Positions 46,577 through 64,000 of a stretch of 64,000 bases of DNA are shown here, in pieces (the first letter of the stretch is position 1; every line of letters begins with the position of its first letter). Both the position numbers and the translations under genes were made by a program. The notes beneath the pieces were generated by a model. That model did no database searches, had not been told where the DNA came from, and worked only from the letters and a program-made list of their open reading frames with translations. The stretch is from an uncultured bacterium (GTDB taxonomy: Bacteria > Hydrothermota > UBA3073 > NMUJ01 > CBEVQO01), in assembly GCA_965552055.1 (NCBI GenBank), contig CBEVQO010000002.1, positions 288,001 to 352,000 of the forward strand, in the 5' to 3' direction.

Positions 46577-46585
46577 CTATCCTAA

Positions 46586-46613
46586 ATATTATAAAAATTT
46601 ACCAGTTTGTCAA
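46586..46613 (-). promoter_or_regulatory. Putative promoter for proS-nusA-infB (TTGACA with TATAAT at 14 nt or TAATAT at 16 nt)
   Basis: TTGACA 46613-46608; the AT-rich TATAATAT stretch ends 9 nt before ATG 46576. Confidence 0.5.
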
Positions 46614-46689
46614 GCTAAAAAATTATAGCTTTAAAAAATCCGTTATTACCTTATAACTTACAAAATTTTTGATAAATTCAAGTTGTAGT

Positions 46690-47340: not shown

Positions 47341-47341
47341 A

Positions 47342-48808: not shown

Positions 48809-48816
48809 AGCCCCTC

Positions 48817-49821: not shown

Positions 49822-49836
49822 TCCCTCCTTACACCA

Positions 49837-49863
49837 AATATACTCAATCTCCCATTTTGTCAA
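49837..49863 (-). promoter_or_regulatory. Putative promoter TTGACA-N15-TATATT for the hydrogenase operon
   Basis: TTGACA 49863-49858 and TATATT 49842-49837, followed by the SD and ATG 49821. Confidence 0.65.
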
Positions 49864-49875
49864 GGAAAATAAATG

Positions 49876-50424
49876 TTATAAAAGTGCGATAATCATTTGC
49901 ACTATTCCTACGAAAAAGCCGATAACTCCACCCATCAGAATTATGAAGCGTATCTCCCTGCCTGATGCCGTGAATACGAGTTTCTCAAGTTCTTCGAGAT
50001 TAAAACTCCTTATTTTATCCTCAACTATTTTGCCGAAGTCAACAGCAGATAGAGCTTTTTCGAGGAAACCGCGCTCAAGAGCACCTTCGATTGCCGCTTT
50101 TAAAACGGGTCTTATCATACTTAATATAATTCTATTGATTTTAAACTCCTTTTCAATTAATTCAATTATTGCGTTTACTGCTTTATCAACTCCTCCTTTT
50201 TCCGTTATCCATTTTTTAATGGTTTCGGTATCGAGCAAGTGCTTTTTTATAACATCACCTACTTTCTGGGCGACATCATCTTTGTATTTGGGAAGGAGGC
50301 CCTGAATCGTGAAAAACAGTATTTTACGGGGCTTTCTCGGTCTGAAAAGCATAATGATGGCAATCTTATTCGTAATCCACCCGATAAATGCACCAATAAA
50401 AGGCATCAGAAATTTGATAATCAT
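49876..50424 (-). CDS. DUF445 (YheB-like) membrane protein
   Basis: IGAFIGWITNKIAIIMLFRP...QGLLPK and C-terminal ELEKLV...EIRFI..MGGVIGF. Confidence 0.9.
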   Translation of the reverse strand: MIIKFLMPFIGAFIGWITNKIAIIMLFRPRKPRKILFFTIQGLLPKYKDDVAQKVGDVIKKHLLDTETIKKWITEKGGVDKAVNAIIELIEKEFKINRIILSMIRPVLKAAIEGALERGFLEKALSAVDFGKIVEDKIRSFNLEELEKLVFTASGREIRFIILMGGVIGFFVGIVQMIIALL

Positions 50425-50428
50425 AACA

Positions 50429-51079
50429 TTACTCCTTTTTCTCTTCGCTCAACCTTTTAATTACACACATTAAAATAATCAATCCTTTTATCAATTTTTC
50501 TCTCATCTTTTTCCTCTGGAAATATCTAATAATTATCTCTAATGGTGACGGAGGAAACGGTAAAAGAGGAATAGGGCGAGGAAAAGGAGGAAGAGGAAAA
50601 GGATATTTTTTAATAGTTAATAATGTAATTAATGCAAGCAAATCTTTCGGACTCAAAGAGGGGATTTTTTCCTTTAATTTTTGCATCAATTTTTCTTTGT
50701 CTTCCTCATCGATTTTTGCTTTCTTCAATTCTTCTGCTAATTTTTCTCTTTCTTCGGGGCTTAAATGGTGTACTATTTCGAGTAAAACTTTTTCTGCTAT
50801 ATTCATTTCTGTTTCTTTTAGAGAGAGTTTCTTTTCGGCATTCCATTCATCTGCAATTTTTTCTATAATTTCTGCTTCTTTTTCTTTATATTTTTCTAAT
50901 GGAATATTTTTCTCACCTGTTAGCCATTCCCAAAGCATCAATCTCAATCCGGTTGGTGTGTATCTTTCTTTTAGTTTCTCAACTTTCACTTTAAATTCGT
51001 CCTCCGTACTCGCTCCCTGTATAAGTGCCAATAAAAACGCCAACTCCTCCCTTGACATTTTTAAAATCTCTTCATACAT
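50429..51079 (-). CDS. Hypothetical protein, weakly YaaW/UPF0174-like, with Pro-rich hydrophobic segment
   Basis: EIIEKIAD...EMNIAEKVLLEIVHHLSPEEREKL resembles the YaaW helical core; contains PFPLPPFPRPIPLLPFPPSP. Confidence 0.5.
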   Translation of the reverse strand: MYEEILKMSREELAFLLALIQGASTEDEFKVKVEKLKERYTPTGLRLMLWEWLTGEKNIPLEKYKEKEAEIIEKIADEWNAEKKLSLKETEMNIAEKVLLEIVHHLSPEEREKLAEELKKAKIDEEDKEKLMQKLKEKIPSLSPKDLLALITLLTIKKYPFPLPPFPRPIPLLPFPPSPLEIIIRYFQRKKMREKLIKGLIILMCVIKRLSEEKKE

Positions 51080-52043
51080 TTTCCCCTCCTCCTGTTATTA
51101 AAACTTTATACTCCTCCCAATCACTTACATGTTTACCTGGCCAGAAAATTGATATATTATATAAAACTTTGTCACCTTCATATAAAGTAATTTCGTCAAA
51201 GGAAACGCTTAGTTCATAAAATAATCTCCACAATTCGCATTGTAACATGTTGGTACCAAGTATCTCCTCCCAAACTGGTTTTTGCAAATAAAGGCCACAA
51301 AGACCTTCTGCAAGTGCCATCATCACATTTACTTTATCTTCGGATAAGAAAAATGCACCTTTATGGAAGTTTATCAACCCGAGAAATTCTCTGAATTGCT
51401 GACGAATTAAAGAATCTTTTACTATTGAATTCCCTCTTATTTCTTTATAATTGGTAGGCATCTGTCCAAACACCATAACCGACATGCCTGTAAATTTTTC
51501 TTCCTGTGAAGTGTCCAGTTCTATAACTTCCTGTAATGCCCTTCTTCCTATTCTGCTTCTGTATAATGGTCTGCCTTCTATTCTGTGAACTTCTGCTGCA
51601 AATTCTTCGATCTCTGCCATAGCGATTTTAGGTATTATTATGAGTATCCAGTTGGGGTATCTCGATTTCATAAAAGCTTTGCTTAGCACAGATGAATATG
51701 TGCAACTTAAAAGAATATTAGTGTCAAATCCCAAGATTATATCGTCATAAGATTTAAGACGCTCGACTACTTCTTCGAAATTACCGTAATTAACTGCCCC
51801 GCATCTTAATAAAGCATCTCTCAATGCATCTTTTATCGACTTTTGTTTTTTCGCTTCTTTTATTTTATCAACTTCAGATAATACTTCAAACACATATCCT
51901 CTATTTTTTGAGTAAAATACCTTTAGCAATTCCATCTCCTTTTCGCATCCCCATTCTTTACATTTACTCTTAATCACAATCTCATTTGTCTCTATAAGTT
52001 TTCTAAATTCTTCCTCATATTTCTTAATAGTTTCCACTTTCAT
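51072..52043 (-). CDS. PIN-domain ribonuclease-like protein
   Basis: ILGFDTNILL (first PIN Asp), IIIPKIAMAEIE, DSLIR and FLSEDK..MMALAEGL give the conserved acidic PIN residues. Confidence 0.75.
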   Translation of the reverse strand: MKVETIKKYEEEFRKLIETNEIVIKSKCKEWGCEKEMELLKVFYSKNRGYVFEVLSEVDKIKEAKKQKSIKDALRDALLRCGAVNYGNFEEVVERLKSYDDIILGFDTNILLSCTYSSVLSKAFMKSRYPNWILIIIPKIAMAEIEEFAAEVHRIEGRPLYRSRIGRRALQEVIELDTSQEEKFTGMSVMVFGQMPTNYKEIRGNSIVKDSLIRQQFREFLGLINFHKGAFFLSEDKVNVMMALAEGLCGLYLQKPVWEEILGTNMLQCELWRLFYELSVSFDEITLYEGDKVLYNISIFWPGKHVSDWEEYKVLITGGGENV

Positions 52044-52060
52044 CTACCCTCCTTTTTTCT

Positions 52061-52285
52061 TTATTGAGTTAATTTTATCCAAACTTCGGGTAACTGTACT
52101 TTTACCCATTCACCTTTTTTATCAATTATACGCACTTTAACCCCAGCGGATAAGAGGCCGATAATTTTACTTTCTTGATAGGGTTCTTTCCTCATCAGTA
52201 TTTCCTTATCCGTAACTATATATTTCTTTCTGCACCCTAAAATACTTATTGCAAAAAACGCCATTAAAATTACACACTTCCTCAT
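52061..52285 (-). CDS. Small lipoprotein with bacterial SH3-like domain
   Basis: Lipobox ILGC; MRKEP..ESKIIGLL..GVKVRIIDKKGEWVKV. Confidence 0.75.
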   Translation of the reverse strand: MRKCVILMAFFAISILGCRKKYIVTDKEILMRKEPYQESKIIGLLSAGVKVRIIDKKGEWVKVQLPEVWIKLTQ

Positions 52286-52297
52286 TTCATCCTCCCT

Positions 52298-54754
52298 TCA
52301 CAAATTTTTACTCTCAATTATCTTTTTTATTTCTTTTACAAATCTTTTCTTATCAGAATATAAACACTCTTCCATTGTCTCCCATATTTTTGCATTTTCT
52401 TTATCAATCTGCTTATAATACGATAAATAAAGTTTAAGCCCTTCCTTAGGAGTTTTTCTCGTAATTTCTCTATAAATCTTTTCAATTTTATTCACAATAG
52501 AAGGATTTATGTAATAAAATGTACTTTCTTCTATTGGAAATCCTTCAAATTGTTTAATTTCTATTTCTTTTTCTAAAATAGATGAATCGTTTAAGTCATA
52601 AGCAACAACCTTAAATATATTTTTCCCTAATTTTAATTGCAATGAAAGAATTAAGTCTATTTCTTTTTTATCAAACATTTTTCTTATCAATAAACTATCG
52701 TCCCAATAAAATTTTACTTGTTTAACCAAAGTATCGTCTTTCACTTTTACTTTTACTTTAATTATGCTATCACAAATTACATTTGGAATTTTAATGCTAA
52801 TTTTAGGCAATGTGACATCATTATAAAACTTAAAAGTTTTACTCATAAAGCCTTTATCAGTTTTCAATACCCATTTTATTGATATTTGATTTAGCATGGG
52901 ATTAAGGTAATGTCTGGTTAATATGAGAGGTAAACTTGTAGTTGAAAGAACGCGGTCATTTATTTTTACAATTAATTTTTTAATATGTCTCCTGTGTGAG
53001 CAATCAATCACCACTCTGTCTTCTTTCTTCTTTATTATAGGCTCTATTCTTGTAATTTTCAAAGAGTATACTCTCTCATTTCCGTATTTATCTAAAGCAA
53101 TGAGATTTACTCTCGAGATTTTTTCTTCTTGTAATTTATCGGTTAATAAAAAGAAATCTTCCTTTAGTTTTTTACTACTTATTTCTCTTTTAATTATTCT
53201 CTCATAAGAAGTATTCGGAGTAAAAACCGAACATTTTACAGTTGAAAGCATTGCATTATCCTCCACATAATATGATAACAATAAACTATCATTAATTATT
53301 TTATAATCCGCCATTTTAATTACCGGGGGCAATAAATCAATATATTTTTCAAAATCTTTAACCCACTTCCCTCTCCCTTTAAACAGAAGTAATTTTAATT
53401 TAAGGGTAGTTGCTAATGGTTTATTGATATAAATTGTCAGCTTATTTTTAGTACAATGATATTTATAAGGTATTTTACTCCTTATTTTAAGCGAGTCACA
53501 CTCACATTTTATCTGGATTTTGTTTCTCTTTTGCATTAATGCTAAATTTGGTTCTGACAATTCTATTTCTTCCCTTCTCACATTATTTGCTTTATCAAAT
53601 GCTATCAAATAAAGTTTTTCGTTTTCTCCTATTGGTAATGTTTTTTCTCCGCTCGCATCTATTTCATAAGTATTATCAGTTTTTAGAAAAACGCTGGATA
53701 TCGAAAAATTATCCTCTACTTTCCATTTGATTTTTATTTTGTCTCTTTTTATTTCATAAGAATAAAATATTTTGGGCGGGTTCTTATCCCATAATATTAC
53801 CTTTTCCTTTTCATAAGTTAAACCTTCTTTCAAGAATACTCTTAATTTAATTTTATGTTTTCCTTCTTTCGAAATAAATTTTTCTAAATTTAACTTTATT
53901 GAGGGAGATTTAGTTACCAGAACCGAGCGTCCATCAATAAAAAGAATTGCTTTTTTAAAAGGAAAGTTAGTCAATACTTTTACTTTAAATTTTGAAGCTC
54001 GGGGACCCCATTCCCTTCTTTCCGGAAATTCTATTTTTGCAATATTTTTTGTAACTGTAAGAGAATATTCTTTGTAAAAATCACTGAATGCCAAGATATA
54101 ATTATAATTACCGCTGGGTAAAATAAATTTCTCGGTTGAGAAAATACCATCTTCTTTTAATCCATCATTATGTTTTCCGTCATCATATAAAATGATTTGC
54201 TTATTAAGAGCTGGAATTATACATTTACCTACTGTATCTCTTATCCGGGTAGTGTACACCATCAGTTTTAATGTATCTTTTAATGCGTACCTTTCAGTAG
54301 CAATCTTATATTTAGTATTAAGTATCTTGATACCTTTAATGCGAGGTCCGAACATCCGTTTAGTTATATAAACTCCTGAAATAAAGGAAAATAAAAGTAA
54401 AAATGGAAGAGAGAGAATAATTGTTTTTACCACTTTTAATTGCTTCGTTATTTCTCCGATTATTTCAAAAATTTTTGTCTTTAAATTCTCCACAAAGTTA
54501 TTTACTTTTTCTTCAGTATTTTTCATCGAATAACTTAAATTTTCATTAAAATCGGTCAATATTTGTGAAATCTTTCTTTTGAGTTCTTCGTTCAATGCTC
54601 TAGTTATTTCCGGAAAAACTTCTCGTTTAAGCATTTCTTCTTTTAATTTGCAGACGATCGCCACTACCTGATCCACTAAAACTCTATCCCAGAATTCTTT
54701 TAATATCTCTTCTGTCTTCTTTTTTAATAATTCAAAAATTTCATCCCTTTTCAT
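52298..54754 (-). CDS. Single-pass membrane protein (818 aa): cytoplasmic helical N-terminus, extracytoplasmic Ig-like repeats
   Basis: TM segment IILSLPFLLLFSFISGVYI; LYDDGKHNDGLKEDGIFS Ca-binding-like loop; repeated DxxPPxI...VEDN...AxDxxxN Ig-type motifs. Confidence 0.7.
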   Translation of the reverse strand: MKRDEIFELLKKKTEEILKEFWDRVLVDQVVAIVCKLKEEMLKREVFPEITRALNEELKRKISQILTDFNENLSYSMKNTEEKVNNFVENLKTKIFEIIGEITKQLKVVKTIILSLPFLLLFSFISGVYITKRMFGPRIKGIKILNTKYKIATERYALKDTLKLMVYTTRIRDTVGKCIIPALNKQIILYDDGKHNDGLKEDGIFSTEKFILPSGNYNYILAFSDFYKEYSLTVTKNIAKIEFPERREWGPRASKFKVKVLTNFPFKKAILFIDGRSVLVTKSPSIKLNLEKFISKEGKHKIKLRVFLKEGLTYEKEKVILWDKNPPKIFYSYEIKRDKIKIKWKVEDNFSISSVFLKTDNTYEIDASGEKTLPIGENEKLYLIAFDKANNVRREEIELSEPNLALMQKRNKIQIKCECDSLKIRSKIPYKYHCTKNKLTIYINKPLATTLKLKLLLFKGRGKWVKDFEKYIDLLPPVIKMADYKIINDSLLLSYYVEDNAMLSTVKCSVFTPNTSYERIIKREISSKKLKEDFFLLTDKLQEEKISRVNLIALDKYGNERVYSLKITRIEPIIKKKEDRVVIDCSHRRHIKKLIVKINDRVLSTTSLPLILTRHYLNPMLNQISIKWVLKTDKGFMSKTFKFYNDVTLPKISIKIPNVICDSIIKVKVKVKDDTLVKQVKFYWDDSLLIRKMFDKKEIDLILSLQLKLGKNIFKVVAYDLNDSSILEKEIEIKQFEGFPIEESTFYYINPSIVNKIEKIYREITRKTPKEGLKLYLSYYKQIDKENAKIWETMEECLYSDKKRFVKEIKKIIESKNL

Positions 54755-56834
54755 GATATTTCCTCCTTATTTTCCTTATTTTTTCTATTTTTCTACTACA
54801 AAATTCCACTTTTTTATTCTCTTCGTTTATTCTTCTAATGAGTAATTCTTTTTCTCTATTTATTTCTTCCTCAGTTCTTTCTAAATCCTTTCTCAAAGTA
54901 TCTATTTGAGAATCAATTTCTTTAATTTTTCTTTTTGTTTCTTCCTTTATTTCTTTCTTGATTTCTTCACAGATTTTTTTACTTTTCTTTTTTACTTCAT
55001 CTTCATCAAATTGTTCATTAAATTTTTCAAATATCTCTTGTACTATTGATTTAGCATCTCTTTTTGCCCTTCGCCAATAGCAGAGACATTTAGCCGTAAA
55101 TGGTTCAGTCCAATCTTCTCTTTTATAGCCCCAGTATTCTGAATCTTTATTATCGATTTTCATTTTACACCAATTTACATAAGGCTCCAATTGCATTAAT
55201 CTAAATTTATTTATAATCTTACGCAAAACATTATTATTTTTTATTTTCATCTTACAATAATTCCTCAATTCTTCTCTCTTCTCTTCTAATAAATAACGCA
55301 AATCATTATCAAAATAATTTTTTACTTTTTTGTATTTTTTAATACCTAAAATGGTCTCGCCGGGTTCACATCTAATCTCTATGTCTTCCAAAACATCTTC
55401 ACATTCGCTTTCTATTTTTTGTTTCATCATGTTTATAGTATCTACGGCTTCCTTTTTATCTTTTTCAACTTTCTCTAATTTTATTCTTTCTTTTTCTTTA
55501 ATTATTCTTTTCATCTCCTCCAATCTACTTATTTCTGCTCTTAACCTTTCTTCCCTCTGGGTCTTTTCTTCTTCGAGCGCTTCTTTTCTTTTTTGCAAAC
55601 TTTCCATCATTTGACGATGATGTTCTTCTTTTTCTTTTAATTTTTCGAGCACTTCTTGAACTATTCCTAAAAGAGGTTCTTTGATCAAAGGTTCGTGCTT
55701 TTTCTCTAAATGAGATTTCAAATCGGATACAAATTTTTCCCATTCTTTGTCCTCTTTTCCTTCTTTTACATTTTTCACTGAGACAAAATAAACTTTTGAA
55801 ATTTTATAATCTTTTAACCATTTAAGTACAAATTCTCTTATTTCTTTTATTGCCTTCTCTCCTCCTTCTGAATATGGAATGTCTTTTTTGTTAATCACAA
55901 AAAATACCCTCTCATTCATTTCTTCTTTTCTATCAATAGTTGGTTTTATCAAATTTAAAATACAATCGAGTATTTCTTTTACATTTTTATTAAAACCTCC
56001 TTTTTGTCCTGGTGCCACGATTATAAAAGCATCACTTTTTATTATTTGGTCTACAGCTATTCCCGTATGTCTTTTTATTAGCGAATGAGTACCTGGAGTA
56101 TCAACTACTTCCACATCTTTCAAAATATCGAAAGGATATTTTACCTCCACTCTATTTATCAAAAAACCATACAAAATATCATCATAAGTTTTATATTTCT
56201 CAACTTTGGTCAGTAACTTTGATTCTATTGCCTTCATTTTTTCATAATCAAAATAAACTTTTACATTTTGTGGATATTTATCAGTAAACTCTTTTAAAAT
56301 TTCCATCTTCTGCTCCTCTTGTAACTTTTTGGAATATTCATATATTTTTTCTTTTATTTCATCCATGTAATTTTTCAGTTGTTGAGAGGAAATTTTTTCT
56401 TTTGTTTGTTCATTTTGAGCATATTTTATTAACCCATCATTTATAAACATTGTCAATGCTTTTATTGATTCATTTTCGGGAATTATCTTAACTCTTTTTT
56501 CATCTATTTCAGTTTTATATAATGTAAAACTTTGTTCTTTTTCAAAATATATTTTTTTCTCTTTTTGCCCGTAATGCACAAAAGTCACAGCACAAGTAGT
56601 AGGAGTAGGTCCTTCTGGTAACATGTCTTCTTTCAATAAACAATTTAGCAGAGAAGATTTTCCAGCCGAAAAAGGTCCTGTTACAGTAATATAATATTTC
56701 TCTTCTTCTATTTTCTTCTTCACCTCATCTATTCGCCTTAAAAGTAAAGGCAAGGGAATATCCTCTATCTCGTTTTTAATCTTCGTAAGCAGATTCTTTG
56801 CACGCATTTTACTTTCATGATGTAATGTTTTCAT
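54741..56834 (-). CDS. Dynamin-like GTPase 4 (canonical motifs, long coiled-coil C-terminus)
   Basis: G1 GPFSAGKSS, G2 PTPTT, G3 DTPG, G4 INKKD. Start placed at ATG 56834 after AGGAGG. Confidence 0.9.
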   Translation of the reverse strand: MKTLHHESKMRAKNLLTKIKNEIEDIPLPLLLRRIDEVKKKIEEEKYYITVTGPFSAGKSSLLNCLLKEDMLPEGPTPTTCAVTFVHYGQKEKKIYFEKEQSFTLYKTEIDEKRVKIIPENESIKALTMFINDGLIKYAQNEQTKEKISSQQLKNYMDEIKEKIYEYSKKLQEEQKMEILKEFTDKYPQNVKVYFDYEKMKAIESKLLTKVEKYKTYDDILYGFLINRVEVKYPFDILKDVEVVDTPGTHSLIKRHTGIAVDQIIKSDAFIIVAPGQKGGFNKNVKEILDCILNLIKPTIDRKEEMNERVFFVINKKDIPYSEGGEKAIKEIREFVLKWLKDYKISKVYFVSVKNVKEGKEDKEWEKFVSDLKSHLEKKHEPLIKEPLLGIVQEVLEKLKEKEEHHRQMMESLQKRKEALEEEKTQREERLRAEISRLEEMKRIIKEKERIKLEKVEKDKKEAVDTINMMKQKIESECEDVLEDIEIRCEPGETILGIKKYKKVKNYFDNDLRYLLEEKREELRNYCKMKIKNNNVLRKIINKFRLMQLEPYVNWCKMKIDNKDSEYWGYKREDWTEPFTAKCLCYWRRAKRDAKSIVQEIFEKFNEQFDEDEVKKKSKKICEEIKKEIKEETKRKIKEIDSQIDTLRKDLERTEEEINREKELLIRRINEENKKVEFCSRKIEKIRKIRRKYHEKG

Positions 56835-57702
56835 TTTCACCTCCTTTTAACATCTCCATTCCTTTTAGTAAAAACCATAATGTAAAAACTTCTCCTAATG
56901 TATCAATCTCGTTCTTTACTTTATTCAAAATCCTTCTGATTTTGTCCAAATAAAATGCCGAACATTTCTCCAAAATTATTTTTAACACATCGTTCACATT
57001 AGTATGAGAGAACTTAACTATGTCCTTTTTACTGCAATTAAAATCTTTGAGGATTTGCTCCCTCGTCAATCGCACAAACTCATCCTTCCTTTCACTTTTT
57101 TCGTAATTTATTGCAAAGATAACTTCTTTGTTTACCCCAATTTTTATTTCTTCCACATTTTGACAGAAAAACGCATAATCTTCTCCCTCCTGGTGTATTA
57201 CTAAATTAATTAAATTAATGTCGGGACTAGTTTTAGAAACAAATTCCGGTATTTTATTCACATATTTTTCCCAATTTTTCTGTATTTCATCCTCTGCACT
57301 CCCCCAGCCCGGTGTGTCAATAAACCGGCAAATTAATAAAAGAGGATGATTATATTCTATCTCAGCATAAATAATTTTATTTACTTCATTCTGTGCCTTT
57401 TGATAAGATGCTACTTTTTGCCATTTCTTTTTATCATATATTGTTTTTTCATCACCATTCTCATACTTTATAAAAGCCCTAAAAGATTCTCCGTACTTCA
57501 CTAAAGTGAAAAAATAAGAAGTAGAAGTAAATCCCATAGGTACCAAATGTTCTGATTCTTTCGTTATATCAATATCTAGAAGTTTATTGATAAGTAAAGA
57601 TTTCCCCGCTTTATCACTCCCCCATATACCAAAAATTAATTCCGGCTCATCACTGCATAAGATCTGTTTTTTTACAAAAATTAAGTCCTCTAACTTTAAC
57701 AT
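56815..57702 (-). CDS. Dynamin-like GTPase 3 (short, degenerate)
   Basis: G1 GSDKAGKS, TLVKYGE, HPLL..CRFIDTPG; G4 degenerate (INYE); little stalk. Confidence 0.75.
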   Translation of the reverse strand: MLKLEDLIFVKKQILCSDEPELIFGIWGSDKAGKSLLINKLLDIDITKESEHLVPMGFTSTSYFFTLVKYGESFRAFIKYENGDEKTIYDKKKWQKVASYQKAQNEVNKIIYAEIEYNHPLLLICRFIDTPGWGSAEDEIQKNWEKYVNKIPEFVSKTSPDINLINLVIHQEGEDYAFFCQNVEEIKIGVNKEVIFAINYEKSERKDEFVRLTREQILKDFNCSKKDIVKFSHTNVNDVLKIILEKCSAFYLDKIRRILNKVKNEIDTLGEVFTLWFLLKGMEMLKGGENENITS

Positions 57703-59261
57703 TTTATTTCTTCCTTTATTCTTTTAATCTCTTCTTTTATCTCTAATATTTCCTCATATTTTCTTTTTACATTTTCTAATTCTTTTTGATATTTATTTGC
57801 ATCAATTTTTGCATTTATTTGCTGTATATATTTATTTATTGCTTCTTGAAGATGCTCTTTTATCGCTTCCTGTGTCTCTTCGCATAAAGTATCAAGAATT
57901 TCATTAACCTTATTTTTGATACTACGCTTTTCCACTTCTTTTAGTACATTTTTCAAAATTTGACCGGTATATTTAAATACTCTCTTAAAAAATATCTTCC
58001 AGTTTTTTATTTTATCCATCTCCTCGGATCTTATCTTTTGCCCCGAAGATTTTTTCGAAAATTTCTTTACCAACTTTTCGGCTAATTTCTCCGAAATAGA
58101 GTCTAGTATCTCTTCTACTTTTTGATTTATTTTTTCTTTCCATTCCTCAGGCAAATTTTCAAAAATTTCTTCTATTTTAGAAATAACAGGCACAGGTAAT
58201 TTACCTTCCTCTTCTTTTGTTTCTATCTCTATTGGCATAATATCTATATTTTGCAATATACAAAACTTTTTAACTACTTCTTTAATTCTTTCACTAAATT
58301 TTGTCTCGAAATTCTGAAGCCATTCCTCGGGATATAAATTTTCATTTATCTCCAATTCACGCTCAAAATTTATTTTTCCTTCTTTTATTATACTTTTCAC
58401 TTCTATTAATACTCCTTCAAGCATATTTTGTAGCAAATGCATTCTCTTTTCCAGAGCAGATTTTACTCTCTTAACTCTTTCTGCTTCTTTTTCGCTTTCT
58501 TTCAATTTTTCTTCAATTTTTTTGAAGGTCTTATCGGCTAATTTTTCGATATTATTAATAAAAGTCTTCAAATGTGTTTGAGAGCCTTTTTGCTCTAAAA
58601 AATGCTCTAAATATTCTAAAAATCCTCCATCGATTTTATTCTTACCCGAAGTGAAAAACACGGGGAATTCCATACCCAAGTTTTTCTTAAAATTCGCAAA
58701 AAACTGCAAAAACTCCATTTTTGCTTCTTCTTTCACCTCGTCGATTTTATTCACAATTACAGCAAAATCTTTATTTTTTAAGTTCTTAATAAATTCTTTA
58801 ATTAAACCTGTCATAGGCTGTGAAGCTCTGGTAAAAACTGCAACAAAGTCAGCATATTTTACAAAAGAATTGGTAATTTCTGAAAGTTCTTTCTTTAAGG
58901 ATTTTAAACCTGGGGAGTCCACCCAGTAAATAGGGGGTAAATCCTCTTTCTTACATTCTAACGCATAAATATAATGTGAATTTAGAATCTTATTTAACTT
59001 TTGCGTCTTACCTTTATTTTTTATGAGTATAATCTTTTCAGTAGTGGGTAGCACATCTACTCTTAAATTCAGTTCAAAAAGAGAGTTCAAAAATGTGGTC
59101 TTGCCTGTGTTAAATTCTCCAGCAAACATTAGGATAAAAGGCTCCTGTAAAACTTCTTTTAACTTTTCGATTTCTTCTTTCTCATCGCAGTATTTCTGTA
59201 ACCTATCTGCCAAAGATTTACTTCTTTCTAATAAATTCATATAATTTTTCATCTCAAACAT
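57696..59261 (-). CDS. Dynamin-like GTPase 2
   Basis: G1 GEFNTGKTT, G2 LPTT, G3 DSPG, G4 VNKID. Start placed at ATG 59261 after GAGGAGG. Confidence 0.88.
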   Translation of the reverse strand: MFEMKNYMNLLERSKSLADRLQKYCDEKEEIEKLKEVLQEPFILMFAGEFNTGKTTFLNSLFELNLRVDVLPTTEKIILIKNKGKTQKLNKILNSHYIYALECKKEDLPPIYWVDSPGLKSLKKELSEITNSFVKYADFVAVFTRASQPMTGLIKEFIKNLKNKDFAVIVNKIDEVKEEAKMEFLQFFANFKKNLGMEFPVFFTSGKNKIDGGFLEYLEHFLEQKGSQTHLKTFINNIEKLADKTFKKIEEKLKESEKEAERVKRVKSALEKRMHLLQNMLEGVLIEVKSIIKEGKINFERELEINENLYPEEWLQNFETKFSERIKEVVKKFCILQNIDIMPIEIETKEEEGKLPVPVISKIEEIFENLPEEWKEKINQKVEEILDSISEKLAEKLVKKFSKKSSGQKIRSEEMDKIKNWKIFFKRVFKYTGQILKNVLKEVEKRSIKNKVNEILDTLCEETQEAIKEHLQEAINKYIQQINAKIDANKYQKELENVKRKYEEILEIKEEIKRIKEEIKC

Positions 59262-61015
59262 TGCTCCTCCTCTTTTATAACATCCATTGTCCTTCTTGTT
59301 AATTTTCTCAACTCTGTCCATTTATCCTTATTTTCTTCCAATTCTATTATTTTCTTATCTATCCCTTTTATTTTTTCGAGCATTTTGTCCTTTATCTTTT
59401 CAAAAGCTTCTCCAAAAACTTTTTTAAACTCCTCACACACTTTTTCTTCTGTCCTCTTAAACGCAATTTTCATTTCCGTATAAAGTTTGCTTTTCAATTC
59501 AACAAGTTTTCTTCTAAGAGTAAGAGAACCTAATATTATAATAATTATATCATCGATTGGACCAGGAATAAATTGAGCGATTACCAAAAGTATACTAATT
59601 ATGCCTATTTTTTGCCATATATCGTTAATAACATCAGCAATCATATTTTTTATTTCCTCTGGAGCTATTTCAGGTTTAATCTTTACCGGCAAACGCTCTA
59701 ACAAAGCGATTGTGAACTCCGATTCCATTAATTCTTTCACTTCTTTTTGTATTTTGTCCTGTATTTTTTCTACTTCGTGTTTTGTTTTTTCTTTTACTCT
59801 TTTCATCACTTCCTCTTTTAACTTATCTTTCTTCCTAAAATAGCTACTTATCTTACCTGTTATTCTCTCTATTTCGTTATACGATACCTCAAAATACAGC
59901 TCTCTCAGTTTCTTTATCTCATTTGAAATTATAAACTCAATTTTCTCTTCTATTCTTCTTTTTGCAGGATAGAGAGTTTCTTTTATATATTCATTTTCTA
60001 AACTTTTACGCTCATATAATTTTTCTAATTCACCTTTAATTTGTTCAATTTCTTTTACACAGATTTTATTCAATTTATTCAATTCTTTTTCCATTCCACC
60101 TAAAATTGATTTTATCTTTTGCGCTCTTAAACCTTTCACATTATCAAAAAACTCTTCTCGTAAGAATTTTATTAACGATAGGTATCCCCATCTATCTAAT
60201 TCTTTTTCATCAAAGCCATTTTTTAATATTTCTTTTACTTTCTTTGCGGAGTATAAAAATACTCTATTTTTCACCATCTCTTTACTAAAATTCACACTTA
60301 TCCAATCTTTTATTTTTTCGATATTTTCCTGTGATTCTTCTTGATCAATTTTGTTAATCACCCCCACAATACTTTTGCTGTATTCTTTTAACTCCTCTAT
60401 CAATGACTTTTCTATTTCCGAACCCGCTTGAGTAGCATCAAATATCCATATAGCAGCATTTACTTTCGGTAAATATTCATATACCACTTTATCGTCTAAT
60501 TCATAAGGAGAGTTAAATCCGGGAGTATTGACCATCACAAGATTTGTTAATTCTTTGCAGGGTAAAAATAACTTAATTATAGTTTCTTCTCTTTTTATCT
60601 TGTCCTCTTGATGTTTTATGTATTCCCATAAACTTTTTAAATCCTCTTTTTCATTTATTGCTATCTCCTTCTTTTTTGTTCCCATTAAAATCTCCGCTTT
60701 TATGTGTTCTCCATAATGTAATTCAGTAATAACTGCATCTGTCGGAGTAAATCCCTCTGGTAGTAATTGGTCTTCAATTAGAATGTGGTCAATTGCCTCA
60801 TTAGCTATTAACACCGAATTTATAAAAGTAGATTTCCCGCTCTTAGTTTCCCCAATTACCGCTAATCTAAATGGCTCTTCCACAACCTTTTTATATTTTT
60901 GCAAGTTCGAAAGCACCACGGGAATGAATGAATCAAGATTCTTGAATTTATCTGCCTCTTCAATAAAATTATCTATTGCACTAATTACTGCATTTTGTTT
61001 TATATCTGCAATCAT
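59249..61015 (-). CDS. Dynamin-like GTPase 1 with hydrophobic membrane paddle
   Basis: G1 GETKSGKST, G2 TPTD, G3 variant NTPG, G4 INKID; hairpin IGIISILLVIAQFIPGPIDDIIIIILGSL. Confidence 0.9.
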   Translation of the reverse strand: MIADIKQNAVISAIDNFIEEADKFKNLDSFIPVVLSNLQKYKKVVEEPFRLAVIGETKSGKSTFINSVLIANEAIDHILIEDQLLPEGFTPTDAVITELHYGEHIKAEILMGTKKKEIAINEKEDLKSLWEYIKHQEDKIKREETIIKLFLPCKELTNLVMVNTPGFNSPYELDDKVVYEYLPKVNAAIWIFDATQAGSEIEKSLIEELKEYSKSIVGVINKIDQEESQENIEKIKDWISVNFSKEMVKNRVFLYSAKKVKEILKNGFDEKELDRWGYLSLIKFLREEFFDNVKGLRAQKIKSILGGMEKELNKLNKICVKEIEQIKGELEKLYERKSLENEYIKETLYPAKRRIEEKIEFIISNEIKKLRELYFEVSYNEIERITGKISSYFRKKDKLKEEVMKRVKEKTKHEVEKIQDKIQKEVKELMESEFTIALLERLPVKIKPEIAPEEIKNMIADVINDIWQKIGIISILLVIAQFIPGPIDDIIIIILGSLTLRRKLVELKSKLYTEMKIAFKRTEEKVCEEFKKVFGEAFEKIKDKMLEKIKGIDKKIIELEENKDKWTELRKLTRRTMDVIKEEEQCLR

Positions 61016-61191
61016 TTCCCCTCCTTTTCTATATCTTTTAAGATTTTATCTATTGTTTCGGCTACAATTTGCTTAATATTTTCAAAAGTTTTATTTAATT
61101 TTTCATCTGTGGTCTCGATGCAAAAATTTCTTAACTCTTTCAGTGAATCAATTAACCATTTTGTTTCCTTGTATAGTTTCTCCCTAAACAT
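61012..61191 (-). CDS. Small helical protein (59 aa): MFREKLYKETKWLIDSLKELRNFCIETTDEKLNKTFENIKQIVAETIDKILKDIEKEGK
   Basis: Hand-translated; fills the gap exactly; its stop overlaps the dynamin-1 ATG (ATGA) and its last codons carry that gene's SD. Confidence 0.7.
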   Translation of the reverse strand: MFREKLYKETKWLIDSLKELRNFCIETTDEKLNKTFENIKQIVAETIDKILKDIEKEGK

Positions 61192-61198
61192 GTTTATT

Positions 61199-61420
61199 TT
61201 ATTCTATTCCTAGCCATCTAAATGGGCAAATTTTACAAACGATAATCCTTAAAAACCACGGCACAGGACAATTCATGCACGGATGAATAATGCCCTTTTT
61301 CGTCTCACCTCCTTCCTTTTTTATCACTTTTTCATCGTGAAGTTTATTTATTTCTTTCTCATATGCGTCTAAATTCCATTTATCAGTTATATTTTTAACT
61401 ATTTCAAATCTTTCTCTCAT
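61199..61420 (-). CDS. Small protein (73 aa) with two CxxC motifs
   Basis: HPCMNCPVPWFLRIIVCKICPF; translationally coupled to repeat copy C. Confidence 0.65.
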   Translation of the reverse strand: MRERFEIVKNITDKWNLDAYEKEINKLHDEKVIKKEGGETKKGIIHPCMNCPVPWFLRIIVCKICPFRWLGIE

Positions 61421-61673
61421 TTCCCCTCCTTTTCTGCTTCTTTTTCTAATTGTTCTGCTATTGTGCGCAGGGCTTCTGCTCCTGCTTTTAAGCCTGCTTT
61501 CTTCCAGAAGTCCGCTTTTTGGTAGCGTGATTTGCCATCCTTATCTTCCTGTGTGCCTTCTTCCATAAAATCTTTTACAAACCTTGCCATCACTTTACTT
61601 GCGAATTCCTCCCAGAATTCCTGTCTCTTCCAGAAAGGTACTTTTTCCTTTTCACTCATATCCCCCTCCTTAT
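61407..61673 (-). repeat. Dispersed direct repeat, copy C (~266 bp, includes the 80-aa ORF, its SD and the next gene's first codons)
   Basis: Identical to 62246-62511 except one substitution in codon 2 and one extra G in the SD run. Confidence 0.95.
61417..61659 (-). CDS. Repeated 80-aa amphipathic helical protein, copy C
   Basis: SD AAGGAGGGGG; ATGA overlap with the downstream gene; two paralogs nearby. Confidence 0.85.
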   Translation of the reverse strand: MSEKEKVPFWKRQEFWEEFASKVMARFVKDFMEEGTQEDKDGKSRYQKADFWKKAGLKAGAEALRTIAEQLEKEAEKEGK

Positions 61674-61676
61674 TAA

Positions 61677-61703
61677 AACTTAAATGAGTTACAGCAATGT
61701 CAA
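61677..61703 (-). promoter_or_regulatory. Possible internal promoter TTGACA-N15-TAAGTT upstream of copy C and the dynamin genes
   Basis: TTGACA 61703-61698 and TAAGTT 61682-61677. Partly inside the 43-aa ORF, so it may be coincidental. Confidence 0.4.
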
Positions 61704-61820
61704 CAAATATATTCTAAAAGTTTGCTTTGGACCGATTAAATTAAATAAAGGAGCAAGTATTTTATAATACCAAGGAATAGGCAATCTAGGAATTCCTTTA
61801 ACAGTAATCGGCTTACTCAT
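61689..61820 (-). CDS. Small hydrophobic protein (43 aa): MSKPITVKGIPRLPIPWYYKILAPLFNLIGPKQTFRIYLLTLL
   Basis: Hand-translated; AAGGAGGT SD upstream of ATG 61820; shares a PxPW motif with the 73-aa ORF. Confidence 0.65.
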   Translation of the reverse strand: MSKPITVKGIPRLPIPWYYKILAPLFNLIGPKQTFRIYLLTLL

Positions 61821-61830
61821 ATGCACCTCC

Positions 61831-62259
61831 TTATAACCCATATTCTGATGGATTTAATCTCCTTTTCTCACAATATCTTTTTAAATCTTTCTGTACAAGT
61901 TTAATGCAAAGCGCAATTACAGTAGCATCGTCGAGATACCCTATGACAGGAATAAAATCAGGAACAATATCCCAGGGATTGATGAAATATATTAAAGCTG
62001 CAGCAACAGCTGCAATAGTATACCACGGAACATCAAAATCGCCTTTGAAAGAATCTCTTAACATTTCGTATAAGAGCCTTATTTGCATCCCAAGTTTTAC
62101 CAACCAATCTATTGCTGAATCTAGCAAGCCTGCCTTTTCGAGTTTCTTAGGAGTCGCCTCAATTGCGTATTTTACATCTTCTTTGTCAACATTTTCCCTT
62201 GCTTTGTTATACATTGCTTCTATTTTTTTCTTCTGTTCATCGGTTAATCTTTCTCTCAT
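61831..62259 (-). CDS. YkvA/DUF1232 family membrane protein
   Basis: ALIYFINPWDIVPDFIPVIGYLDDATVI signature. Confidence 0.92.
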   Translation of the reverse strand: MRERLTDEQKKKIEAMYNKARENVDKEDVKYAIEATPKKLEKAGLLDSAIDWLVKLGMQIRLLYEMLRDSFKGDFDVPWYTIAAVAAALIYFINPWDIVPDFIPVIGYLDDATVIALCIKLVQKDLKRYCEKRRLNPSEYGL

Positions 62260-62511
62260 TTCCCCTCCTTTTCTGCTTCTTTTTCTAATTGTTCTGCTAT
62301 TGTGCGCAGGGCTTCTGCTCCTGCTTTTAAGCCTGCTTTCTTCCAGAAGTCCGCTTTTTGGTAGCGTGATTTGCCATCCTTATCTTCCTGTGTGCCTTCT
62401 TCCATAAAATCTTTTACAAACCTTGCCATCACTTTACTTGCGAATTCCTCCCAGAATTCCTGTCTCTTCCAGAAAGGTACTTTTTCCTTTTCACCCATAT
62501 CCCCTCCTTAT
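62246..62511 (-). repeat. Dispersed direct repeat, copy B
   Basis: Near-identical to 61407-61673 and 63356-63590. Confidence 0.95.
62256..62498 (-). CDS. Repeated 80-aa amphipathic helical protein, copy B
   Basis: SD AAGGAGGGG; ATGA overlap with the ykvA-like gene. Confidence 0.85.
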   Translation of the reverse strand: MGEKEKVPFWKRQEFWEEFASKVMARFVKDFMEEGTQEDKDGKSRYQKADFWKKAGLKAGAEALRTIAEQLEKEAEKEGK

Positions 62512-63344
62512 GGCATCCAATGGTTTATTTCCCCAGAATTTATAAATTTTTGTAAAATCTCTATCCTTTTTGCAGAAGGAGGATGATCTGATTTTATCCG
62601 CTCCCACCACGATAGATGCTTTTCATACATCCCCATTTTTGAAAGACAGCTTATAGCATATTCAGGAGGAATACCCGCTTCTTGCATCAGTTTTACTGCA
62701 CATTTATCTGCACTCACTTCTCTATCTCTTTGCCTCTTTTGTCTTATTAAAGGAACTTTATCAAGCCAGCTATATATCTCAAAATGTCCCAAAATCATAT
62801 GAGAAATTTCGTGGCTCATTATAAATATTATTTCATTTAAATCCAAATATTTAAAAGAAGCAGGGGTGATTGCAATCTCGCCTATAAAAGCTGCCCCAAA
62901 CTGCTGCGGCTTTACACATGCATTTATAGCGTAATTCATATACTCCACAGGAGTACAGCCTGCTTGCATTGCTTCTTCTATAATCTCATTTTGATAGTAG
63001 GGACGCACTCTTACAAGATGCCAGTCTATATTTGAATGCTTCATTTTAATTGTTTGTGCCAGAGGCAAATAAAATATTTCATTCGCTATTTTATTTAATG
63101 CAATCAAACGTTTACTCCAGACATCTGACCAGCGCTTTAACTGCAACAGCGCAAGTACGATTATAGCAATATTTACAAATAATTGCCATTTGTGAAAGTA
63201 TTTGAAATTAAAATAAATACCTGTAAGGAGAAGTGCTCCTGTGAGTAATTTTTTAACTTTTGCTGTCACATCATATTCTCTTAATAAACCCACAAGGGTT
63301 AAAATTGCAACAGCACAATAAAGTCCAATCTTAACGGCGTTCAT
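62508..63344 (-). CDS. M48-family (HtpX/Ste24-like) membrane zinc metalloprotease
   Basis: Three N-terminal TM segments; YAINAC, HEISH (HExxH), REVSAD and SDHPPSAKRI. Confidence 0.88.
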   Translation of the reverse strand: MNAVKIGLYCAVAILTLVGLLREYDVTAKVKKLLTGALLLTGIYFNFKYFHKWQLFVNIAIIVLALLQLKRWSDVWSKRLIALNKIANEIFYLPLAQTIKMKHSNIDWHLVRVRPYYQNEIIEEAMQAGCTPVEYMNYAINACVKPQQFGAAFIGEIAITPASFKYLDLNEIIFIMSHEISHMILGHFEIYSWLDKVPLIRQKRQRDREVSADKCAVKLMQEAGIPPEYAISCLSKMGMYEKHLSWWERIKSDHPPSAKRIEILQKFINSGEINHWMP

Positions 63345-63582
63345 CCTTTTCCTCCTCTGCTTCTTTTTCTAATTGTTCTGCTATTGTGCGCAGGGCTTCT
63401 GCTCCTGCTTTTAAGCCTGCTTTCTTCCAGAAGTCCGCTTTTTGGTAGCGTGATTTGCCATCCTTATCTTCCTGTGTGCCTTCTTCCATAAAATCTTTTA
63501 CAAACCTTGCCATCACCCTGCCTGCGAATTCCTCCCAGAATTCCTGCCTCTTCCAGAAAGGTACTTTTTCCTTTTCACCCAT
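63331..63582 (-). CDS. Repeated helical protein, copy A (83 aa, divergent C-terminus)
   Basis: Same sequence as copies B and C except GR for SK and the tail EEEKDERR. Start placed at ATG 63582 after the GAGGGGG SD. Confidence 0.85.
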   Translation of the reverse strand: MGEKEKVPFWKRQEFWEEFAGRVMARFVKDFMEEGTQEDKDGKSRYQKADFWKKAGLKAGAEALRTIAEQLEKEAEEEKDERR

Positions 63583-63590
63583 ATCCCCCT
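63356..63590 (-). repeat. Dispersed direct repeat, copy A
   Basis: About 5 substitutions versus copy B over ~230 bp. Confidence 0.93.
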
Positions 63591-63596
63591 CTTTCA

Positions 63597-64000
63597 TTAT
63601 CTTATACGATGAGATGGAAATTTTATGACAAAGAAATTTAAAATTTTTTCATCCTGCACTACCCAGACCCATAAATCTTCCTTAAACTCAACCTCCCCAT
63701 AATTGGATATTTCTTTTCTTTTGCCATTTTCCACAATTATTTTTATATTTTCCTTTTCCGGTGCTCCTATTCGCAAATAATATTTACCACGCTTCTTTCT
63801 AATCGCAAACTCCATCAAACAACCATCAATTTTGCGTTTAAATACCTTTTCCTCTTTGAGAAAAAAACGCAAAAGTGAATCGGAAATCAAAAAATAGAGA
63901 TTAGGTGCCCTGCAAAAATTAATTTTAGAAATCTCATAAGGTATATCTAACTTTACTTTCTTTAATCTCCTTTTCAAAATCTCAAATCGCTTTTTCTCCA
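63597..64000 (-). CDS. Hypothetical protein, 5'-truncated by window edge
   Basis: Frame stays open beyond 63977 to the end of the window (EKKRFEILKRRLKK...). Confidence 0.55.
   Translation of the reverse strand, partial: EKKRFEILKRRLKKVKLDIPYEISKINFCRAPNLYFLISDSLLRFFLKEEKVFKRKIDGCLMEFAIRKKRGKYYLRIGAPEKENIKIIVENGKRKEISNYGEVEFKEDLWVWVVQDEKILNFFVIKFPSHRIR

Follow-up and report, generated by a model that had tools for sequence, protein, structure and literature searches.

A dynamin-rich gene cluster of an uncultured Hydrothermota bacterium: likeness to the Eleos system and a candidate DUF1232 partner of bacterial dynamin-like proteins

Paired bacterial dynamin-like proteins (BDLPs), such as the Nostoc BDLP (structure 2j68), DLP1/DLP2 of Campylobacter jejuni (5owv), DynA of Bacillus subtilis and IniA/IniC of Mycobacterium tuberculosis, are encoded by tandem genes. 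DynA is known to tether and reseal membranes, and the same activity has been proposed for Eleos (formerly 'Dynamins'), which is composed of LeoBC and LeoA and represented by LeoABC of enterotoxigenic Escherichia coli; the recruitment of BDLPs to membranes and the sensing of phages by Eleos are, to our knowledge, open questions. According to the sections of the preprint by Millman et al. on which we draw, a two-gene dynamin system is located beside defence genes in 60% of cases and protects Bacillus subtilis against jumbo phages in a P-loop-dependent manner; the mechanism by which the operon confers defence is stated there to be unknown. The present analysis concerns a gene cluster of an uncultured bacterium of the Hydrothermota that encodes four BDLPs and occupies positions 49876 to 64000 of a 64,000-nucleotide (nt) stretch of contig CBEVQO010000002.1 (G000:C2:288001-352000; hereafter the window). 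A first-pass annotation had proposed an undescribed envelope-remodelling or anti-phage system at this locus. Of this proposal, the membrane-protein cluster and the recurrence of its DUF1232, M48 and DUF445 components stood up, whereas the PIN effector and the labels 'Ig' and 'YaaW' did not; "undescribed" was an overstatement, since LeoABC/Eleos, to whose kind the dynamin core belongs, has been described. With about even confidence, we read the cluster as an enlarged Eleos-like BDLP machine that would guard the membrane, with DUF1232, DUF445 and M48 as accessories.

The window contains 18 consecutive minus-strand open reading frames (ORFs) of the cluster (ORF lists), in the order 145-aa (amino acids) ORF, repeat ORF A, M48 protease, repeat ORF B, DUF1232, 50-aa mini-ORF, repeat ORF C, 73-aa CxxC protein, 59-aa ORF, dyn1 to dyn4, 818-aa protein, SH3_3 lipoprotein, PIN nuclease, 216-aa protein and DUF445. 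The largest intergenic gap amounts to 29 nt (between the 50-aa ORF and repeat ORF C); the remaining junctions are gaps of 4-17 nt or overlaps of 1-26 nt, with the exception of dyn1 and dyn2, which overlap by 73 nt or, if a later ATG is used, by only 4 nt. Strand, order and tight spacing had been described correctly in the first pass. Transmembrane (TM) segments were predicted by a hydrophobicity scan in M48, DUF1232, dyn1, the 818-aa protein and DUF445, and the SH3_3 protein carries a lipobox recognized by eye; the earlier annotation is supported in that the cluster is real and rich in membrane proteins.

All four dynamin genes are located on the minus strand. The 588-aa dyn1 (59249..61015; Dynamin_N E value 8.7e-19, 68.6 bits) is a LeoBC-like BDLP, the 541-aa dyn2 (57696..59321; 1.9e-08, 34.9 bits) is LeoA-like in its N-terminal part only, the 295-aa dyn3 (56815..57702; 1.2e-05, 25.9 bits) comprises little beyond the GTPase domain, and the 699-aa dyn4 (54741..56840; 9.8e-17, 61.9 bits, residues 51-288) shows an insertion in its GTPase domain. 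Measured against the Dynamin_N gathering cut-off of 27 bits, the four dynamins named earlier are recovered as three proteins above the threshold (dyn1, dyn2 and dyn4) and one, dyn3, just under it; a DLP_helical Pfam match was obtained for none of the four. The P-loop GxxxxGK[ST] is intact in all of them as judged by eye. A hydrophobic hairpin is present in dyn1 (residues 462-500), and dyn2, dyn3 and dyn4 are devoid of TM segments according to the hydrophobicity scan. Among the PADLOC profiles, dyn1 matched LeoBC over most of its length (5e-14; residues 47-561, model positions 76-562 of 601), dyn2 matched LeoA with residues 28-199 only (1.6e-11), and dyn4 matched LeoA with its N-terminal part only (4.4e-12).

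The nearest solved relatives of these proteins by sequence are the paired BDLPs: the Nostoc BDLP 2j68 for dyn1 (5.3e-4), the C. jejuni DLP 5owv for dyn4 (6.5e-12) and, weakly, the IniA structure for dyn3 (0.038), whereas no sequence match in the PDB was obtained for dyn2. The likeness extends to the tandem genes, to the membrane hairpin of one member (dyn1) and to an NCBIfam DynA match of dyn4 (3.6e-25, which is far under the cut-off of that family). In contrast to the described pairs, four members are present here, one of them with little beyond the GTPase domain, and the similarity is mostly restricted to this domain (E values of 6.5e-12 to 0.04). In the all-against-all comparison, each dynamin was more similar to one encoded in another genome than to the three beside it (the best blastp match of dyn3, for example, was a dynamin of genome G122, 1.6e-10), which argues for old paralogues and against a recent tandem duplication. 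Searched in a word-indexed protein database, dyn1 yielded five weak matches besides itself; no further dynamin was found elsewhere in the genome. G122 and G096 likewise encode dynamin arrays, of three members each, and the four-member array appears to be new.

The distribution of dynamins was followed through a set of 272 genomes of the phylum (designated by G numbers; loci by L numbers). A Dynamin_N match was obtained in 226 of them, mostly as partial P-loop matches of other GTPases; genuine dynamins (E value of at most 1e-9) are restricted to 11 of the 272 genomes including the present one. The order of the host is represented by three genomes, in which no match reached this level (best E value 7.9e-5). 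The host organism is the sole member of its family among the genomes compared. Twelve dynamin neighbourhoods from the ten other dynamin-bearing genomes were compared with all cluster proteins (blastp, E value below 0.01; 81 ORFs scanned with Pfam). In several of these relatives the dynamins are located in a defence context: they adjoin CRISPR-Cas (clustered regularly interspaced short palindromic repeats and associated genes) in G096 and G254 and the PADLOC candidate PDC-S11 in G122 (3e-40), and they are accompanied by HerA/mad8, an LHH nuclease and a SUKH immunity protein in G075 and by an HSDR_N-like nuclease in G271. Proximity to defence genes, which the first pass had suggested testing, was found for these relatives, but not for the cluster's own locus with its housekeeping flanks. 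Of the families whose co-occurrence with dynamin arrays the first pass wanted searched, DUF1232 and M48 recurred, whereas the PIN nuclease and the 216-aa protein labelled YaaW-like did not; short DUF445 recurred as well.

The dynamin pair of G254 represents a canonical, full-length Eleos according to PADLOC (LeoBC 9.3e-85, LeoA 1e-100) and provides the scale on which the profile matches of the present cluster have to be regarded as weak and partial. Upstream of the pair, G254 encodes an RtcR/PspF-like regulator, a 251-aa protein and a short DUF445 protein that is homologous to that of the cluster; downstream are a Card1-like nuclease and type III-B Cmr genes. At G254:C1:122001-154000 (L043, L127), the pair is enclosed by a CARF_AAA_HTH-like regulator on one side and the Card1 nuclease with the type III-B Cmr genes on the other, and GTPase-DUF697, DUF1232 and M48 genes come next on the same strand; this locus may be a CRISPR-linked dynamin locus. 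Compared with Eleos, the present cluster shares the adjacent genes for a LeoBC-like dyn1 and a LeoA-like dyn2, the intact P-loops, and the DUF445 protein whose homologue adjoins the canonical pair in the same phylum. It differs by four dynamin genes instead of two or three, by a locus outside any defence island, and by DUF1232, M48 and short DUF445, which do not appear in the dynamin-system account of Millman et al. as far as the sections used here go.

The best-supported candidate for a dynamin partner in the cluster is the small membrane protein of the DUF1232 (YkvA) family (142 aa, 61831..62259, minus strand; PF06803, 1.3e-14, 54.1 bits versus a cut-off of 23). A DUF1232 gene is located within 3 kb of dynamins in two of the ten other dynamin-bearing genomes of the phylum: in G122 (40% identity) it precedes three dynamins in the same orientation, and in G079 (38% identity) it is divergent from the genes of a trypsin-like protease and a dynamin. 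In G254, the DUF1232 gene lies on the same strand at a distance of 11.3 kb from the dynamin pair, is preceded by a GTPase-DUF697 gene and overlaps an M48 gene. A profile built from the DUF1232 proteins of the window, G122 and G079 gave 53 matches in 45 of the 272 genomes; the top four were those of the window, G122, G079 and G254, three of which had built the model, and G254 was thus the best match outside the profile-building set. The 100 immediate neighbours of DUF1232 at 52 loci were mixed and included several other peptidase families and no M48.

Independent of gene neighbourhood, a fusion of both domains was detected in another phylum. The 708-aa protein of L125 combines DUF1232 (residues 61-96) with Dynamin_N (residues 203-357), and its gene is followed by two further dynamin genes (the third one of the row being short), a DO-GTPase-like gene and the gene of a DnaJ-type zinc-finger protein. 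A search with this protein revealed DUF1232-dynamin fusions in 5 of 251 genomes of that phylum, the genome of the query included; the four others (L214-L217) share 25-54% identity with the L125 protein, contain both domains above the Pfam cut-off in every case (4/4), and are each followed by a second dynamin gene. No other single finding argues as strongly for a cooperation of DUF1232 and BDLPs as the maintenance of this fusion. The DUF1232-dynamin link is a feature of a subfamily and no general property of DUF1232 proteins. In L054, DUF1232 is paired with a GTPase-DUF697 gene as in G254, and in L046, L085, L088, L090, L076 and L054, which belong to other bacteria, it adjoins a Rce1-like or YgjP-like metalloprotease, DUF4230 or GTPase-DUF697, which hints at a wider DUF1232-protease or DUF1232-GTPase theme. 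The prediction of a complex of dyn1 and DUF1232 scored 0.00 and is no evidence either way. No report linking DUF1232, YkvA or DUF445 with dynamins was found in the literature searched (supplements excluded), nor was the partnership found there for the paired BDLPs; one paper names such families together at unlinked loci, and among the papers mentioning DUF1232 none dealt with dynamins according to title and abstract. It is above all this partnership of DUF1232 and BDLPs, seen in neighbourhood and fusion, together with M48 and the short DUF445, that appears to be new.

Two further families recur around dynamins or DUF1232. The membrane-anchored M48 zinc protease (278 aa, 62508..63344, minus strand; PF01435, 4.7e-12, 46.5 bits versus a cut-off of 20.3) contains the motifs HEISH and REVSAD (E-x-x-AD), which were recognized by eye and align with those of its G254 homologue, and a TM segment at residues 3-21; the homologue, whose gene is the one overlapping DUF1232 in G254, was confirmed by PF01435 (1.2e-12) and by blastp over 252 aa (9e-10). 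The short-form DUF445 protein (182 aa, 49876..50424, minus strand; PF04286, 2.1e-25, 90.9 bits versus a cut-off of 33.8) matches the family model in two stretches, has half the length of the model and exhibits TM segments at both ends. DUF445-like matches were obtained in only 10 of the 272 genomes of the phylum; short forms that stand alone occur in three of these, namely the present genome (G000), G254, where a protein of 38% identity is encoded directly upstream of the canonical Eleos pair, and G031. The M48, YkvA, SH3, PIN and DUF445 assignments of the first pass are all supported by Pfam.

G031 contains no genuine dynamin; its genes are arranged in the order sigma-like, 187-aa ORF, zf-HC2 anti-sigma, TPR-CHAT, DUF1232 and short DUF445. 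This arrangement mirrors the one upstream of the present cluster, where a sigma-like gene, a 143-aa ORF and a TPR-CHAT gene follow each other; the TPR-CHAT module is located 2.3 kb from DUF1232 here, and in G031 DUF1232 and DUF445 come directly after TPR-CHAT. In the sequence beyond the window edge (L001:1604-5651), the cluster strand carries DUF4230, a divergent sigma-like gene (237 aa), the 143-aa Ig-like ORF and the 765-aa TPR-CHAT gene. A divergent DUF2283 gene on the opposite strand lies between the TPR-CHAT module and the cluster. The sigma assignments are below the Pfam cut-offs both here and in G031. CHAT proteins are common in the phylum (53 of the 272 genomes); 11 genomes contain both CHAT and DUF1232, and in two of these, G000 and G031, the genes are at most 2.5 kb apart. 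A CHAT-DUF1232 pairing in G104 (less than 5 kb) was judged coincidental because unrelated genes lie between. A kinship of the 143-aa ORF with the 145-aa ORF of the cluster was considered and discarded, as the two share just a 14-residue motif with 'KRFEILK' (E value 0.016). Two more CHAT proteins are encoded in the genome (C4:161048 and C2:107835); one of the two is again preceded by small ORFs, one of which shows an anti-sigma-like Cys motif by eye.

The closest described counterparts of this module are protease-plus-sigma signalling modules such as type III-E Craspase, in which the TPR-CHAT protein Csx29 occurs with Csx30 and RpoE. The likeness consists in the divergent sigma-like gene and the small protein that precede TPR-CHAT here, and in the sigma-like gene and the zf-HC2 anti-sigma that precede it in G031. 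In contrast to Craspase, there is no adjacent Cas7-11 (no search aimed at Cas7-11 was made), the Cas10 loci of the genome are on another contig, the sigma matches are sub-cut-off, the DUF2283 gene separates the module from the cluster, and the link comes from two genomes. The sigma-like/TPR-CHAT module may either control the system or feed into it. Taken together, the comparisons support a conserved core of a BDLP array and DUF1232, which may connect to the sigma/TPR-CHAT module, with M48 and short DUF445 as probable recurrent accessories.

For an Eleos-like machine composed in this way, dyn1 would be inserted into the cytoplasmic membrane via its hydrophobic hairpin, and the soluble paralogues dyn2, dyn3 and dyn4 would assemble with it into a GTP-driven hetero-oligomer. 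DUF1232 and the short DUF445 would act as membrane adaptors or triggers of dynamin assembly, and the M48 membrane protease would process or regulate one of the components. The assembly might then tether, reseal or reshape the damaged cytoplasmic membrane, with phage attack as the most likely trigger. What the data show are the gene order with its tight spacing, the family assignments, the recurrence of DUF1232, M48 and DUF445 with dynamins, and the DUF1232-dynamin fusions; physical contacts such as those of DUF1232 with the dynamins, what the protease does, what triggers the assembly and the defence outcome are what we infer. The defence contexts of the relatives, together with the dynamin system as described in the part of the account by Millman et al. 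used here, favour such a machine.

Several findings weigh against it. The Eleos profile matches are weak, and those of dyn2 and dyn4 cover only the N-terminal GTPase part. By eye, the G3 motif of dyn1 reads NTPG instead of DTPG, and dyn3 contains P-loop and DTPG without a visible NKxD (G4); in consequence, not all four proteins need be active GTPases. Two plasmid-borne canonical Eleos loci, inspected out of 31 distant records that the G254 LeoBC retrieved from a plasmid collection, contain no DUF1232, DUF445 or M48. Beyond the phylum, where the best 80 of 565 confirmed DUF1232 loci were surveyed with one genome per species and 10-kb flanks, a dynamin was present within 10 kb in 2 of these 80 best loci, one of them being G079 again; within the phylum, the other DUF1232 genes follow P-type ATPases or further housekeeping genes. 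The links of M48, DUF445 and CHAT were each found in one other genome. Apart from TPR-CHAT and PIN, the surroundings consist of housekeeping genes (for hydrogenase, ProS, NusA, Fe-S and NAD functions) and form no defence island. Finally, the GC content at third codon positions (GC3) gives no clear sign of horizontal acquisition.

Part of this evidence would also suit a housekeeping operon for envelope maintenance or vesiculation (repair after heat or envelope stress, or vesicle budding) with no dedicated anti-phage role, a possible explanation that we consider rather unlikely. HtpX-type M48 proteases serve in membrane quality control, and membrane repair, envelope stress and the release of vesicles are processes with which DynA, IniA and LeoA have been associated; these functions, the same-strand housekeeping flanks, the housekeeping contexts of the other DUF1232 genes of the phylum and the genome-typical GC3 of dyn1-3, M48, DUF1232 and PIN speak for it. 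As noted in the first pass, the dynamin part is AT-rich, with a GC content of 26.5-30% compared with 34-37% for the 15 contigs; the examination of GC content and codon positions that the annotation had called for yielded no clear signal of foreign origin. According to the per-gene analysis, the GC content at second codon positions is 0.21-0.25 in this part versus a genome mean of 0.33, and Lys, Glu and Ile account for about 40% of the residues, so that the AT-richness is mostly an effect of amino-acid composition. The GC3 values of dyn1-3 range from the 28th to the 56th percentile of 987 long ORFs, those of M48, DUF1232 and PIN are genome-typical, only dyn4 and the 818-aa gene fall into the low tail (2nd-4th percentile), and the repeat ORFs deviate in the opposite direction, to the top of the genome range. 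With GC3 mostly normal, a foreign origin was rejected as unproven. Against a housekeeping role stand the patchy occurrence of genuine dynamins, which fits accessory genes better than core ones, the CRISPR-Cas systems, nucleases and candidate defence genes next to the dynamins of relatives, and the DUF445 homologue that flanks a canonical Eleos pair.

The borders of the cluster were determined on both sides. The cluster continues past the window edge, as stated in the first pass, and the upstream sequence adds the remainder of the 145-aa ORF, which the edge cuts (63597..64000, minus strand; complete at L001:597-1034; no Pfam or NCBIfam family), and a 100-aa ORF on the cluster strand (L001:1006-1308) as the first gene, for which no family was found above threshold. 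A sub-threshold DUF697 match of this ORF (E value 0.0075) was dismissed, as pairwise comparison with the GTPase-DUF697 protein of G254 gave no similarity. The cluster thus starts two genes beyond the window edge, followed after 96 nt by the divergent DUF2283 gene. At the other end, DUF445 is followed after a gap of about 54 nt by the gene of a NiFe-hydrogenase small subunit on the same strand. This gap (49821-49875) contains TTGACA, a 15-nt spacer and TATATT together with a strong ribosome-binding site, so that transcription of the hydrogenase genes may start from a separate promoter although they come directly after the cluster; no terminator was predicted between DUF445 and the hydrogenase gene. 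Scans for promoter-like sites (66 versus 69.0 expected) and terminator-like sites (10 versus 7.5) remained at chance level, and Rfam gave 0 matches at positions 46000-64000. Contigs of DNA sequencing runs are fragmentary, and none of them covers the entire cluster. Within the flank, at 46690-47340 on the minus strand, a 216-aa protein is encoded that consists of many short repeats ('EEMREENNRRF / EEINRRF') and has a C-terminal TM segment; only a sub-threshold apolipoprotein-like Pfam match was obtained for it (GC3 0.456, at the top of the genome range).

The one-strandedness of the cluster by itself means little, because the neighbouring hydrogenase, proS and nusA genes share the strand, as does the whole 20-kb stretch, and the GC skew is negative throughout. 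The genes could be unrelated neighbours, of which only the four dynamins, perhaps with DUF1232, cooperate, and the rest would have been packed by genome compactness and transcription in one direction; the short distance to the hydrogenase gene would suit this improbable alternative, and so would the loss of PIN in a sister strain and the lack of any homologue of PIN, the 818-aa protein, the repeat ORF, the 216-aa protein, the CxxC protein and the mini-ORFs in the twelve dynamin neighbourhoods, from which M48 homologues are likewise absent (for SH3_3, only G071 encodes a protein, of greater length, ahead of a dynamin). Against it stand G254 with its pairs M48-DUF1232 and DUF445-dynamins and G031 with its pair DUF1232-DUF445, two genomes from different families of the phylum in which the arrangements differ, and the start/stop overlaps along the whole cluster. 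Lineage-specific additions, which may or may not take part in the system, are the triplicated ORF, the 818-aa protein, the SH3 lipoprotein, the CxxC protein and the mini-ORFs.

The triplicated ORF is present on the minus strand as copy A (88 aa, 63331..63597), whose end overlaps the M48 start by 14 nt, copy B (80 aa, 62256..62498), whose stop overlaps the DUF1232 start (ATGA), and copy C (80 aa, 61417..61659), whose stop shares the sequence ATGA with the start codon of the CxxC gene. At the DNA level, B and C show 100% identity to each other over 259 nt and A shows 91% identity to them; within a shared core of some 228 nt, about 5 positions vary among the copies. Each copy possesses its own Shine-Dalgarno sequence and an end that overlaps the start of the next gene, and both DUF1232 and the CxxC protein, which follow repeat ORFs, start with MRER. 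No further copy was found in the genome, and in the word-indexed database of 5.8 billion proteins the own cluster was the only match. The RNA fold of the repeat unit (z = -1.16) gave no evident RNA element, and no Rfam match was obtained. The repeat ORFs are real, and we read them as encoding a small protein of two amphipathic helices, maintained as three gene-converted copies, each of which would be coupled in translation to the gene behind it; this triplicated coupled leader ORF appears to be new.

The 818-aa single-pass membrane protein (52298..54754, minus strand) has no Pfam match and comprises an N-terminal helical part, a TM segment (112-130) and a long part predicted to be beta-rich. 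Among 5.8 billion proteins it matched only itself, and 0 convincing matches were obtained in 60 relatives. An AlphaFold model of its ectodomain, calculated without alignment, was unusable (predicted local distance difference test score 35.6; mostly beta predicted), and nothing in these results sustains the 'Ig' label given to the protein in the first pass. In the 99%-identical strain represented by L130, its cytoplasmic N-terminal part is 78% identical and about 330 nt longer, whereas the remainder is 99% identical. The 74-aa SH3_3 lipoprotein (52061..52285, minus strand) was identified by SH3_3 (2.2e-07) and the lipobox ILGC. The acidic helical 216-aa protein of the cluster (50429..51079, minus strand) showed no Pfam match at E values up to 10; clusters of DUF3944/YaaW/MsyB-like proteins were nearest in the ESM Atlas (0.94, 21 of 30 matches, with recognition below the reliable range), and the former designation 'YaaW-like' thus describes a language-model look-alike, useful as a lead. 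A correspondence to the 251-aa protein that occupies the equivalent position in G254 was rejected for lack of similarity. No family was found for the hydrophobic mini-ORF of 50 (or 43) aa (61689..61841, minus strand; no homologue in related loci), the 73-aa protein with two CxxC pairs and a possible zinc ribbon (61199..61420, minus strand), and the 59-aa ORF (61012..61191, minus strand), which is helical by composition and overlaps the dyn1 start by 4 nt.

The PIN-domain nuclease (323 aa, 51072..52043, minus strand; PIN_4, 1.5e-05, 25.8 bits versus a cut-off of 21.9) had been regarded as an RNase effector of the system. An exhaustive profile-free search revealed 132 relatives, 96 of them at an E value of at most 1e-10; in an alignment of ten sequences, D107, E144, E146 and D236 do not vary and D210 hardly varies, and 8 of 27 relatives scanned contain an N-terminal Alba domain. 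Conserved acidic residues and Alba domains make an RNA-directed nuclease plausible. In a metagenome scan, 80 PIN loci were fetched, 34 of them at least 8 kb long; another cluster homologue was present at 1 of the 80, which is L130, a contig of the 99%-identical strain, and none of the 79 others contained a dynamin, DUF1232, DUF445, M48 or any other cluster homologue. In L130, about 569 nt of the PIN gene are replaced by 8 nt, whereby residues ~22-211 including the catalytic core are lost and the frame is kept; the intact and the deleted form both occur in sequencing run X1. The core deletion and the divergent N-terminal part of the 818-aa protein lie on the same strain contig (L130 versus window positions 50877-54697). 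The empty loci and the in-frame deletion mark PIN as a dispensable local neighbour, most likely a bystander and no effector of a conserved system. Three Cas10 loci are present in the genome on contig C1 (335837, 241266 and 277609). An abortive-infection system, in which the 818-aa and SH3 proteins as envelope sensors and TPR-CHAT would activate PIN as a suicide RNase with the dynamins in a supporting role, is very improbable, since its points in favour (the conserved catalytic residues, a similarity of PIN to the PIN part of CARF-PIN effectors with 5.3e-9 in PADLOC, the Cas10 loci and the upstream TPR-CHAT) meet the PIN record just given, an association of PIN relatives with Alba instead of sensor domains, and proposed sensors that have no relatives and so cannot be backed by conservation.

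The dynamin core itself is of a known kind, and the PIN nuclease, the 818-aa 'sensor' and the YaaW label are the parts of the 14-kb picture that should not be built upon. DUF1232, in contrast, is fused to dynamins in one phylum and in another is located beside dynamins, M48, TPR-CHAT and type III-B CRISPR. It is conceivable, although doubtful, that DUF1232 is the missing membrane receptor or trigger of Eleos-type dynamins and, more widely, a protease-gated membrane module of several immune systems, and that the present cluster is the most elaborate dynamin immunity known, switched on by sigma/CHAT. As a recurrent neighbour and fusion partner of BDLPs, DUF1232 offers, with the short DUF445 and M48 as two more candidates, concrete, small components with which binding, localisation and phage challenge can be studied.

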